Part shown: positions 34,556-63,245 of the stretch, piece after piece | How positions within the stretch are numbered: position 1 is the stretch's first letter | Layout of the letters: the number at the start of each line of letters is the position of its first letter | Assembly (NCBI GenBank): GCA_964016885.1 | Contig: OZ024743.1 | Coordinates: forward strand, 96,038,001-96,102,000 | Length of the DNA stretch: 64,000 nucleotides | Source of the DNA: Eledone cirrhosa | Lineage: Eukaryota | Reading direction: 5' to 3' | Position numbers and translations under genes: made by a program | The notes under the pieces: generated by a model | Seen by the model: only the letters and a program-made list of their open reading frames with translations | The model's database searches: none | What the model was told of the DNA's origin: nothing

Positions 34556-34780
34556 TAGGAAAATAGTCAGGACCCCGACGGCAGAGCTCAAGCCGTTTCA
34601 AATGCTATTTCTGGACTAAAAAAATTCATGAATTCTTTTTAGTCCAGAAATAGCCGTCGAAACGGCTTAAGCGCTGCCGTCGGGGTCCTGACTCATTTCC
34701 TATTACCCACTCTACTACCCAAAGTGTCGAATACTCTGGTGCGTTATGGTCTACCTGGTTCCTTACCTCACTTCCTTCGT
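34556..34780 (+). mobile_element. Penelope-like fold-back terminus, copy a: long palindrome plus 78-nt tail, in (TA)n
   Basis: Inverted arms TAGGAAA...TTTCCTA (34556-34702) and tail 34703-34780 ending CTTCCTTCGT. Homologous copies lie at 58357 and 63055. Confidence 0.75.
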
Positions 34781-34893
34781 TATATATATATGTATGTGGG
34801 GGAGGGGTAAAAGGTAAACAGAAATAACAGCACAGTCGGTACAGTATATGGAAGGAATATATTAGGTTAACGCTTGAAATAGCAGGAAGAGGG

Positions 34894-34930
34894 TCTTAAC
34901 GTTTCGGGTGCTAGTCCTTCATCAGAAGAA
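34894..34930 (-). ncRNA. Minimal type-I hammerhead ribozyme motif (Penelope-like)
   Basis: Minus strand TCTT-CTGATGA-AGGACTAGCACCC-GAAA-CG-TT-AAGA: stem I TCTT/AAGA, palindromic ACGT stem III, weak stem II. Confidence 0.6.
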
Positions 34931-35479
34931 AGAATGAGAAATAAGATAGATTGAGGGGACGGGCAGGTTGGAATTGGAAAAAAATGTCTTTAAATAAAAA
35001 TAACAGGTCAATTCATGTTGACATCTCTATTGGTGAGTTTGTTACTCTAAAGTGTCACTTGTGTACTCACAGGATCACCAGTGTTGTCAGGTGAGTACAC
35101 AGGTGAGACTCCAGAGTATCAAGACTTAGCAATAATAAATGACTATTTAAACTCTACTTCGGTATTGAGTTTTCATTCCTACGTCCGTCAATAATTCACG
35201 TACTCTCAGGTCTTGAATAACCCTCCCCACCCCTCACTTAATTTGTCAGATTTTTTCCACCTTCGGGTTATTTTTCCACACCCACCCCTCATCTGCTTAT
35301 TATATTCTGCTAATCTATCTCCGACGAAATTTTATTGTAAGTGATTCATATTGATACAACAGCTGGAGAATCTAATAATTATTTTATTTTATATTTAAAA
35401 ACGTTTTATGACAAAAGAAGAACATTACAAGAAATCCCATATTTACCAACGTACCCTATATAATTACTGATATCTAAAG

Positions 35480-36045
35480 CCCCCCTCCCATTATTGCTAC
35501 CCCTCCTATTGTTTGGGACCCTCTCTCTATATCTAATATACAGCACGCTCTCCCAACCCTCCTCACTGTATCAATCACCACTAAACGACCCCCCTCTCTA
35601 TATCTACCATTCAACAGTCTCATTTTTTCTCACTCTATCTATTACTACCAAACTCTCCACTTCTCTGTATCTATCATACATCACTCACTCCCAATCCCCC
35701 TCTCTATATCAATTATCACCAATCTCTCCCACTCTATATATCTACTACACGGAATTCTCTCTCATTCCCTCTCACTCTATCCATCACTACCAAACTTTCC
35801 CCCTCTTTATAACTATCAATACCTATCTCTATCAATCTTCTCACTCTATTCATTACCGCCAAACTCTTCCCTCTCTACTATACGGAACTCTCTTCCAATC
35901 CCCCTCTCTATATCAATTAGCACCAAACTCTCACTCTCTCTATATCTACGACATGGAACTTTCTTCCTATACCCCTCTCTATATCAATTAATACGAAACT
36001 CTCCCCCTCACTATATATCTATATCTATCTCTCCCATCTGTCTCT
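35480..36045. repeat. Degenerate pyrimidine-rich minisatellite
   Basis: Recurring ccctctctatatcaatt..accaaactctccc motifs at ~30-35 bp spacing. Confidence 0.65.
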
Positions 36046-36100
36046 ACATAACATGTACATAAATTGAAGCACATATACAAATAGTTGTATGTTTTGTTAG

Positions 36101-36289
36101 AATAATTGTTTCTATTATTGGCACAAGGCCAGCAATTACCCAGTACATTACTGGTACTTTATTTTATCGACCCCGTAAGGATGAAAGGCAAAGTTAACCT
36201 CGGCGGGATTTGAACTCAGAATGGCAAGGGCCGTAACTCTATGCATCAAAGCATGGTGTCCGACCCTCTACCGATACTCCCAATTCGCC
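36101..36289 (-). mobile_element. tRNA-derived SINE
   Basis: Same family as 32061-32249. Confidence 0.88.
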
Positions 36290-36417
36290 GGGTGGATAAT
36301 GTAGAGTTATTAGTGCAAAGTACACAGTACTTAGTTTACCGAGTATATATTAGAGGATGTATGATGAATAATATATATTTGGCGTAAAACATAGAATGTA
36401 CATTATTATAGCGTAAA

Positions 36418-36609
36418 GGTGGTGGATTGGCAGTATCGGTAGAGAGTCGGACACCATGCTTTCACGCATAGAGTTACGGCCCTAGCCATTGAGAGTACAA
36501 ATCCCGCCGAGGTTAACTTTGGCTTTCATCCTTACGGGGTCGATGAAATAAAGTACCAGTAATGTACTGAGTAATTTGCTGGCGTTGTGCAAAAAGTAGA
36601 AACAATTAT
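36418..36609 (+). mobile_element. tRNA-derived SINE
   Basis: GGTGGTGGATTGGCAGTATCGGTAGAG...GAGTACAAATCCCGCCGAGG...AAACAATTAT. Confidence 0.88.
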
Positions 36610-36656
36610 AAAAGCGTAACTTATATGGTGTAAATGGTACAGTTAACAATGTATAA

Positions 36657-60440: not shown

Positions 60441-60576
60441 CGTCTATAAATTGGTTTCAGTGGTGTTCTTGCAGCACACTTCACTTTTTGGTGTAAATAC
60501 AATTATATTATTAATTTATAGAAACATATTTGTACGTGTGCCTGTGTGAGAGATAGGTGTGAGTACAGGAACAGGA

Positions 60577-60661
60577 AGAAAGAAAGAAAGAAAGAAAGAA
60601 AGAAAGAAAGAAAGAAAGAAAGAAAGAAAGAAAGAAAGAAAGAAAGAAAGAAAGAAAGAAA
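60577..60661. repeat. (GAAA)n microsatellite
   Basis: Read directly. Confidence 0.97.
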
Positions 60662-61166
60662 TGAGCTGTTAAGTATTTTATAAATTTGGTAATTGATCAT
60701 ATTCAGAACAAAGTTTCCCGCTTGACAATTCTCATTTGTTATGCATCGCACTGAAAAATAATTTATAACGTTATTTATTTTCGTTTTTAGTTTCCATCTT
60801 CACCGATTTTTCTTATTGTGTGATAAGAACTTATCCTTTGTGTGACCAAGAGAATGGAAAATATGTCTTGTAAATCAACAAACATTGTCTTTTTAAAAGA
60901 GCAACATTTCACAATTGCTGTGAAATTATACTAAACATCGCTTATGAATATAATGGTTAAAATATATGACGGAAGAACGAATGTGACATATTGTATTTGC
61001 ACTGGTGTAAGTTATATCCCTATAATAAGATAATCTGGCCACGGTTGAATAAGTTCTGAATAGGCAAGGAGAGCGGGGTTATTTATTTGTTTCGGCTCTC
61101 TAGGCTCTGTCTTCAAATATTGCCAAAATAACTTTACCTTTCATCTTTCTTGATAGATAAAATATC

Positions 61167-61325
61167 TGTTTCTACTTTTGGCAGATCAGCAATTTGAAAG
61201 GATTTGGGAAACGTCGATTAAATCGACCCCAGTGTGTTACTGGTGCTTTATTTTATCGACCACGTAACGTTGAAAGACAAAGTTAACCCCAGTGGGATGT
61301 GAACTCAGAATGTAAAGAAGTGCCA
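61167..61325 (-). mobile_element. Degenerate SINE of the same superfamily (further fragments at ~61050-61165 on +)
   Basis: TGTTTCTACTTTTGGCA..TACTGGTGCTTTATTTTATCGACC..GAAAGACAAAGTTAACC..TGAACTCAGAA. Confidence 0.65.
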
Positions 61326-61898
61326 GTTGAGATGAATGAAATGGTAGAATTGTTAGGACCTGGGTTCAGATGCCATTTTGAGTTATTCACATAGATATAA
61401 GCAAATGCTCGGTTTAACAACCAAAAAACCTGGTTACTGAATGCTTTTAGTGAAGTTCATTTTATTTCAAGCATTCGGGCCATATCTCCGGTTTGATGAT
61501 AGCTGCGCTGCCTATACGTTGCAGTAGATTTTCTTCACTTCTTGTTCATTCCAAACAACTTTAAAGTGATTAACACAGCCTGCTAGATAAGTTTTACACG
61601 TAACCGAAAGGTTTCACTTTTTTCACACTCAACTATACCGAAGAATACTGTCGACAGGGTCGGCAAAATTTAGATGAACACCAGGGAGATTCCCTCGTCA
61701 CATAACGCATTCAAAATGTTAATCAGAAAGCCATTATCCTCAACAAACTTTTAAAAGCGCTACATATAATAATGTCACATATCTGAAATGACGTATTCAC
61801 TATCATAATATAATAAAAGGAGGAGTGCGGGACTGCGTCCTGAATATATTTTTCTTACCCCGTTTGTAAAATAAGTTGGATTTCTTTGAATAAATAAT

Positions 61899-62085
61899 TG
61901 TTTCTACTTTTTGGCACAAGGCCAGCAATTACCCAGTGCATTACTGGTACTTTATTCTATCGACCCCGGAAGGATGAAAGGCAAAGTTAACCTCGGCGGG
62001 ATTTGAACTCAGATCATACAGGGAGGTAACTCTATGCTTCAAAGCATGGCATCCGACCCTCTACCGATACTGCCAATCCACCGCC
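61899..62085 (-). mobile_element. Full-length tRNA-derived SINE with 18-bp TSD
   Basis: TTTCTTTGAATAAATAAT at 61881-98 and 62086-103; A and B boxes intact. Confidence 0.92.
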
Positions 62086-62802
62086 TTTCTTTGAATAAAT
62101 AATGAATGAATATTACATAATTTATGTACTAAATTTTGTAACTCTTGATTAAATATAAATAATTGTATTGCTTATTTCAAGATTCGCTTCTTTTAAAATG
62201 TTCAAATGTCAATACTTCCGGTTATGATGTAATGGACGCTATATCACATGGTTTATATTTCCGTCGCTAATTTTCTCCTTTATCATTTTCATAAAATTTT
62301 GCCGTGATGCAGTTTATATATATTATCTTTTTTAAATGTATCATGGATTACTTTACTGATTACAGAAGAGAGTGTAACACACTCTCTTCAATTTCTGTGG
62401 ATATTGTCAATTACGATTTTATTTGAGGTATTATATCTACATGCATATAATATCAATATGCACGCTACACATACTAGCAGAAGTTTTTCTACTAGTACAT
62501 TTAAACATGTTAACTCCATCCCAAACGGCAGTCTGACTGATTCACAAACCTTCATTCACTTTATTTCTCAAAGGTATCACCTTGAACATTCTCTCTGCCA
62601 CGAGTTCCCTACAAACATCAAACTATATCAAACTTAACGTTTCTAAAGCCTTTCAGAATTTCCACTTCGTATATTTTATTCCTCATTTAGATTTATTATA
62701 TTATAGCTATATGATATTTCACTAGTCCGACCCTTCTTAACCCTTCTTTCACTTTTCCTATCTTTGCTCAATATATTTGATAGCAAATTTTGTTGGTTAC
62801 AG

Positions 62803-62866
62803 GTTTCCAACAAACCAGTTACTAGTTCACTTCATTTGTGACGTCAAGTATGAGGAGCAAGTGTTT
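62803..62866 (+). other. Candidate exon containing a start codon (ATG 62850)
   Basis: Acceptor TTTTGTTGGTTACAG and donor GTAAGT (62867). The ATG has A at -3 and encodes MRSKC plus 2 nt. Confidence 0.45.
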
Positions 62867-63054
62867 GTAAGTCGATGTATCACAAGTGACTTCATTTCTA
62901 AAGCACTGTCTTGTTTTCGGTGTTTATATCCTTCACCTATAAACCTCTGCGAAAAATATACATACACACACACACACACACACACACACACACACACACA
63001 CACACACACACACACACATATATATATATATATATATATATGTGTGTGTGTGTA

Positions 63055-63245
63055 TAGGAAAAGAGTCAGAATCCCAACGGCAGAGCTCAAGCCGTTTCGA
63101 CAGCTACTCCAGAAATAGCTGTCGAAACGGCTTGAGCTCTGCCGTTGGGGTTCTGACTCTTTTCCTATTACCCACTCTACTACCCAAAGTATCGATTACT
63201 CTGGTGTGTTATGGTCCACCTGGTTGCTTACCACACTTCCTTCGT
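63055..63245 (+). mobile_element. Penelope-like fold-back terminus, copy c
   Basis: ~52-bp arms with one mismatch (63055-63167), tail 63168-63245 (78 nt), then (TA)n. Confidence 0.78.

Follow-up and report, generated by a model that had tools for sequence, protein, structure and literature searches.

The window analyzed here, a 64,000-nt stretch of Eledone cirrhosa contig OZ024743.1, contains three short hairpins (copies a, b, and c) that are very probably stubs of a Hydra-type Penelope-like element (PLE). We consider it roughly 75% probable that stubs of this kind formed from two separately primed cDNAs, which stopped early on a predicted hammerhead ribozyme and were joined head to head within (TA)n. 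Counted from the first letter of the window, copy a occupies 34556-34780 (+), copy b 58357-58555 (-), and copy c 63055-63245 (+). Each contains a palindrome running from TAGGAAA to TTTCCTA (147, 121, and 113 nt, respectively), followed by a 78-nt tail that ends in TCCTTCGT and gives way to (TA)n; on its left side, copy c is bordered by (TG)n/(TA)n. Hairpin centers and junctions differ among all three copies. An earlier, sequence-only reading of the window had described three (TA)n-flanked hairpins of ~200 bp with the TAGGAAA start and the 78-nt tail, a loop that differs from copy to copy, and specific arm variants, all of which were recovered here. It had also assigned half of a hammerhead to copy a and noted that the CUGANGA half was missing from all three copies. 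The half-hammerhead of copy a indeed reads as described, and no CTGANGA was found within copies a, b, or c. The cut site of copy c is GTT, not GTC.

These copies are members of a very large family. Searching the 3.0-Gb assembly with a 22-mer of the tail returned 44,137 exact matches, and a stem-III core pattern returned 61,982 exact matches genome-wide. Both figures are lower bounds on copy number, and since the reversed controls gave 0 matches, neither hairpin nor core matches can be attributed to chance. The tail had been called invariant, which is true of copies a, b, and c; family-wide, however, its length is modal rather than strictly invariant, because 78 nt was found in 65 of 80 measurable copies. 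At some loci (L004, L006, L033, and L134/L212), several stubs adjoin one another within one TA run, i.e., the same microsatellite was targeted repeatedly.

Long copies of the family lead into one open reading frame (ORF) containing reverse transcriptase (RT) and C-terminal GIY-YIG endonuclease (EN) regions (loci L061, L062, L068, L103-L105, and L342; the first three were reached via widely spaced opposite-strand pairs of stem-III core matches). The subfamily of copy b enters the same ORF in L342 (60.5% over 433 amino acids and 83% over 101 amino acids to L068). L103-L105 make up a full unit. It comprises a tail-bearing copy in inverted orientation, a direct copy that continues through its tail into the ORF start, the ORF itself, and a 3' copy without the tail, ending at TTCC(TA)n; partial tandem units were found on contig C1 at about 11,226,200-11,232,000. 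The length series is continuous from short stubs to ORF-bearing RT elements. The predicted model of the ORF protein had a pLDDT (predicted local distance difference test) score of 91, and its top four Foldseek hits were telomerase RTs. The ORF carries RWR (position 8), DKT (90), CNCPDRSIC (545), CNLC (643; CxxC), and CKH (671; CxH), and the L068 ORF contains YRDDG, YIG, and the downstream R/E/N region. Across 94 aligned sequences, conservation of the key motif residues (R/W, D/K/T, Cys, Tyr/Gly, and His) was 90 to 100%. No CCHH was present: read by eye, the GIY-YIG core halves have no Cys between them except in the linker region.

The Hydra clade is defined by RWK-like and DKT motifs, a CxCX5C linker, and CxxC plus CxH, without CCHH (PMC8557442). 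The family has this motif set and inserts into (TA)n, and its single ORF with telomerase-like RT and GIY-YIG corresponds to an EN+ PLE. The published Penelope insertion unit comprises a pseudo-long terminal repeat, an adjacent inverted 5'-truncated copy, and a one-sided tail (PMC8557442, PMC3846280), an arrangement found in L062, L068, and L103-L105 and in the sampled hairpins described below. Like that canonical unit, the family shows a head-to-head inverted copy, a one-sided tail, and partial tandems; unlike it, the tail measures 78 nt versus 30 to 40 nt, and most copies are ~200 nt long with sharply clustered breakpoints. The sequence-only reading was thus right on the Penelope-like origin and (TA)n targeting, and the linked RT/GIY-YIG ORF that it proposed to look for was found; this architecture is known for PLEs and is ordinary. 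A Naiad PLE was rejected, since Naiad has an N-terminal GIY-YIG, DKA, and a CxC domain, whereas the EN here is C-terminal and the motif is DKT; Neptune was considered early and dropped on motifs.

In long copies, ACCCC-TTGANAA-G lies ~60 nt upstream of GAAA (6,518 matches at long spacing). The core is thus UUGANAA, with U3-A8 in place of C3-G8, and precedes a long stem II. The sequence-only reading had placed ACCCC-CTGANGA upstream and had supposed that a genuine hammerhead fold lost its upstream half in the short copies. The long copies confirm this loss and the existence of the upstream half, but with ACCCC-TTGANAA as its core. When the core was left free, 77 of the 100 matches listed were TTGANAAG, 17 were CTGANAAG, 6 were other sequences, and 0 were CTGANGA (hand count), with all four bases occurring at the free position N7. 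The canonical CUGANGA core gave only 13 matches at long spacing versus the 6,518 above. A search for CTGANGA within 6 to 36 nt of GAAA yielded 46 matches, which were rejected as chance because their spacing is not fixed; the spacing is also too short and the core differs.

The predicted structure is a type I hammerhead fold, with three stems around the core, a 3-8 pair, an NUH cut, a 5-bp helix III, and a long, bipartite stem II. We aligned 23 long copies (alignment A2), hand-picked from 61 matches to exclude rows that were truncated, near-duplicate, or due to chance. The 3-8 pair was U3-A8 in 19 of these, U-G in 1, and other in 3; G10.1-C11.1 was found in 22/23 and A15.1-U16.1 in 23/23. In this alignment, 93.8% of cells pair, versus 29 to 52% when slid, and three stem II pairs differ at both positions from one subfamily to another. 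Natural hammerheads with U3-A8 as a compensatory core are known (Perreault 2011, PMC3088659; Cervera and De la Pena 2014, PMC4209133). Three old, diverged homologs (L346, L347, and L348), which are among the 13 canonical matches, keep CUGAYGA and C3-G8, two of them with stem I GCCC/GGGC; L346, whose stem I is CGCCC/GGGCG, matches arm plus tail at 71% identity over 113 nt. These homologs suggest a core change from C3-G8 to U3-A8, perhaps via the C3-A8 subfamily.

A canonical CUGANGA hammerhead is described for the Hydra clade but not used to delimit it in PMC8557442, and the present family has U3-A8 instead. Whereas the Hydra-clade hammerheads in File S2 of Craig et al. 2021 (PMC8557442) are all CUGANGA with a short stem II, the family here has UUGANAA, a stem II-loop II of ~55 nt, and a 9-nt loop III. 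It further differs from those elements in its 3' untranslated region (UTR) of 0.65 to 1.3 kb, its high copy number, and the predominance of tiny hairpins. The Cercyon PLEs of Schistosoma mansoni share the U3-A8 compensatory core and likewise have opposite-strand hammerhead pairs, 100 to 700 bp apart (PMC4209133); however, Cercyon hammerheads are minimal and lack helix III. Because the Cercyon clade differs, this comparison suggests that the U3-A8 switch was independent. In L062 and L068, CCGTTTCGAC in the 3' UTR, ~330 nt upstream of the hammerhead, is complementary to the core segment GTCGAAACGG; this pairing, which is imperfect in other subfamilies, could be a long-range off-switch or chance.

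A plot of inversion breakpoints relative to stem II, called for by the sequence-only reading, showed a cluster on its 3' side, in agreement with the stem II breakpoints that this reading had inferred. The plot is based on contig C1, where the first 100 exact matches to the tail were taken, a sample biased toward young copies, and the G of GAAA was set as position 0; arm ends are uncertain by a few nucleotides, and long inverted arms were left out of the measurement. Hairpins accounted for 76 of the 100 sampled copies, and inverted arms stopped at the tail start in 70/76, placing the two fixed outer ends 78 nt apart. Arms began at -25 to -10 in 52/100 tail-bearing and 56/76 inverted cases, and at -61 to -26 in only 2 and 1, respectively. 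Most copies extended past GAAA (66/100), and 8/100 tail-bearing arms passed the core. Per-base loss was 10.8% in the -25 to -10 interval versus 0.55 to 0.69% elsewhere (~20-fold hazard). On the 3' side of stem II, these 16 nt take in both the upper helix and the internal loop. Arm starts in copies a (tail-bearing/tail-less, -21/-21), b (-15/-17), and c (-16/-8) agree with this hotspot. In another subfamily, whose stem II sequence differs, junctions fell at about the same position (judged by eye among the matches listed), and junctions varied between copies even within the youngest subfamily.

A second, smaller accumulation of ends was found at the predicted GUC cut (+22/+23). Among the 100 sampled copies, 6 ends fell at +22 to +25 (one internal deletion left out) versus ~1.8 expected (P ~ 0.009; interval set after seeing the data). 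We then tabulated by hand the 46 distinct loci of very short elements listed by a pattern search (16 non-inverted, 30 hairpins). Five of the 16 non-inverted mini-elements start exactly at +23 (P = 2.6 × 10−4 if uniform over 26 positions), and the main arm lies unambiguously at +23 in 13 of the 30 hairpins; because the pattern favors short arms, the hairpin counts are inflated, whereas the non-inverted count is unaffected. Both arms end at the cut in 12/46 mini-elements, with spacers of 0 to 5 nt (0 to 2 nt in 8; hand count, with 3 of 14 loci confirmed by script). We lean modestly toward reading the +23 ends as run-off from self-cleaved RNA. Pausing of RT at the base of stem III would leave ends at +22/+23, nearly the same coordinate as the cut, and is indistinguishable from run-off. 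Arm-end positions likely record either RT stalling on the ribozyme or run-off at a cut end.

In the reading that we favor, the GIY-YIG EN would nick both strands of a TA run, by analogy with Poseidon (PMC11167929), and RT would start at two fixed RNA sites, one at the tail end and the other 78 nt inside, at ...TTCCTA, where TAT in the element matches the target. As the junctions suggest, most cDNAs would abort on uncut RNA, at the 3' side of its extended stem II, and a minority would terminate at the cut site; both cDNA ends would be fused by host end joining, which would use microhomology or add short inserts. Such products, lacking the UUGANAA half, would be ribozyme-dead and non-autonomous. 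Work in vitro on the anole Poseidon element PAc (Frangieh et al. 2024, PMC11167929) reports that both strands are nicked at AT-rich sites, that two RT start sites bracket the tail, and that uncut RNA is used, so the two-cDNA model has a tested basis in another clade. The family resembles PAc in its AT-rich target, its paired start sites, and templates that would mostly be uncut, given the 66/100 copies past GAAA; unlike PAc, for which no RNA ends at the cut site are reported, a minority of insertions here end there.

Two separately primed cDNAs are favored by copies with mosaic arms, by tail-less arms that exceed the tail-bearing ones in length, and by CCCC(0-2 nt)GGGG junctions. The principal rival, which we regard as unlikely, is that a single cDNA stalls near stem II, folds back via short microhomology, and serves as its own template as far as the tail start; self-priming has also been proposed elsewhere (PMC3846280). 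As snap-back predicts, the two arms usually belong to the same subfamily: among the 39 of 76 hairpins that met the filter for arm comparison, the subfamily signature was common to both arms in 25, versus 5.9 expected. In addition, 33/76 junctions overlap by at least 1 nt, and arm ends often lie within a few nucleotides of each other. However, in ~9 copies (11 listed, 2 of them internal deletions) the tail-less arm reaches -15 to -23 but its tail-bearing partner begins only at +17 or beyond, leaving snap-back without a template; the opposite asymmetry was listed 3 times, of which 2 are internal deletions. Overall, the tail-less arm was at least 10 nt longer in 18/76 hairpins and shorter in 7, although some of the 18 are internal deletions or ambiguous microhomology (L187, L199, L218, L229, and L233). 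In L247 and L249, the arms carry two different subfamily signatures. The CCCC-GGGG junctions, with a spacer of 0 to 2 nt, are too tight for a priming loop, and snap-back gives no reason to stop exactly 78 nt short. The specific version in the sequence-only reading, self-priming by stem II pairing, is unsupported because the junction that it predicts, one retaining the whole of loop II, occurred in 0/100 copies. Arm covariation had likewise been offered as a sign that one arm was copied from the other. Among the 31 copies entering the private-variant count, 0 private variants were common to both arms and 27 were one-sided. The arms differed from each other by a mean of 2.8 of 50 nt, versus 1.6 to the nearest other copy (a minimum, biased low). 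Covariation therefore marks the subfamily and does not prove copying, although this alone does not exclude copying at insertion.

Long palindromes are unstable, and longer insertions could have been trimmed to ~60-bp arms, making the hotspot a product of DNA repair and not of RNA structure. Internal deletions that remove stem III do occur (L006, L187, and L199); they lie between short direct repeats, and RT skipping or later slippage are possible sources. We nevertheless consider trimming improbable, more so than snap-back: the hotspot is retained where there is no long palindrome, in short-main and non-inverted copies (L150, L172, and L182), long inverted arms survive (L062, L068, and L076), and a second hairpin family, described below, has longer arms. 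Least credible, to the point of near dismissal, is a fixed-structure non-autonomous element, whether a DNA miniature inverted-repeat transposable element (MITE), a Helentron/DINE-like element, or a single amplified hairpin master. High copy number, TA flanks, and inverted repeats would suit such an element, but junctions vary even in the youngest subfamily, the ends are asymmetric, and the length series extends to ORF-bearing RT elements. A DNA MITE or Helentron was accordingly rejected, as it is contradicted by the variable junctions and by the RT-bearing parent in the ORF-linked long copies.

Several points weigh against two early-stopping cDNAs on a hammerhead. To the young-copy bias, positional uncertainty, unmeasured long arms, doubtful cases among the longer arms, and shared arm subfamilies given above should be added that later one-sided deletion or gene conversion could have produced the asymmetry and the mosaics. 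Self-cleavage of the family hammerhead is a prediction, on which the insertion ends at the putative cut bear only indirectly. The CTGANAAG-type cores are C3-A8 mismatches in 17 of the 100 matches listed. The number of stem II pairs altered at both positions does not exceed that in shuffles (462/500), a figure that is not a probability because the covariation stems from few subfamily splits. Rfam did not detect a hammerhead in the window or in three long copies, and unconstrained minimum-free-energy folding gave the three-way fold in only ~6 of 15 references. Sequence searches of the ORF against Pfam and PDB returned nothing significant, so the EN assignment rests on motifs. Finally, a second hairpin family of the genome, also Hydra-type, keeps its core in 22/30 arms; decapitation is therefore not a general rule and is specific to the first, U3-A8 family. 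A remnant of this second family lies at 58580-58668 of the window, with a canonical, short hammerhead (CTGAGGA...GAAAC-AATT-GTT; 6,935 exact matches). It shows the same tail-less/tailed hairpin unit with longer arms, and Hydra-like ORF pieces adjoin some copies.

In vivo cleavage by PLE hammerheads and the origin of PLE inverted repeats are stated as open questions in PMC4209133, PMC8557442, and PMC11167929. Both become testable by counting because this family offers at least 44,137 independent insertions, whose two outer ends are fixed and whose inner ends form two sharp clusters. We tentatively propose, at somewhat less than even odds, that the stubs are footprints of the Penelope ribonucleoprotein: ends at GUC would indicate that the U3-A8 hammerhead cut germ-line RNA, a ribozyme-bound roadblock would abort most cDNAs and cap the spread of the element, and CCCC(0-2 nt)GGGG would mark two separately primed cDNAs, not self-priming. 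The family thus adds resolution, as a fossil map of reverse-transcription stops and a source of exact constructs for in vitro work. Moreover, CUGANGA-based searches miss a hammerhead-like motif found thousands of times in one animal genome. A literature search found no account of the family, of a U3-A8 hammerhead with long stem II in the Hydra clade, of the 78-nt tail, or of breakpoint clusters at a PLE hammerhead; Repbase, Dfam, and preprint supplements were outside its scope, so the family may already be catalogued. Passages of bioRxiv 10.64898/2026.07.22.740005 contained none of the family's U3-A8 hammerhead, 78-nt tail, or breakpoint clusters, and two family motifs gave 0 matches in the portion of the Craig supplement compared.

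Within the window, copy a begins with its tail-less inverted arm (34556-34620, -), which covers the 3' region of the element, beginning 21 nt upstream of GAAA and ending in ...TTCCTA. A 17-nt junction insert follows (34621-34637); it is partly self-complementary and not found in the reference parents. The tail-bearing arm (34638-34702, +) includes the stem II 3' strand (34648-34656), GAAA (34659-34662), stem III, the predicted cut (34681/34682), and the stem I 3' strand, and is followed by the tail (34703-34780, +) and (TA)n. Copy b consists of the tail (58357-58434, -), a tail-bearing arm starting 15 nt upstream of GAAA (58435-58493, -), and a tail-less inverted arm starting 17 nt upstream of it (58495-58555, +); the tail-bearing arm has the subfamily signature of L071/L073, which runs into the ORF in L342. 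In copy c, the tail-less inverted arm (63055-63106, -) starts 8 nt upstream of GAAA, the tail-bearing arm (63108-63167, +) starts 16 nt upstream of GAAA (63124), and the tail spans 63168-63245 (+). Minimal hammerhead-like motifs of other repeat families, with CTGATGA and CTGAAGA cores, adjoin copies a and b at 34884-34930 (-) and 58835-58885 (-), respectively. Elsewhere, the window contains a 35-bp tandem satellite of ~770 units with extreme G and A skew (1-28000), an inverted repeat with 156-nt arms at 92% (36134-36576), and a segment repeated three times (51285, 53779, and 55856).

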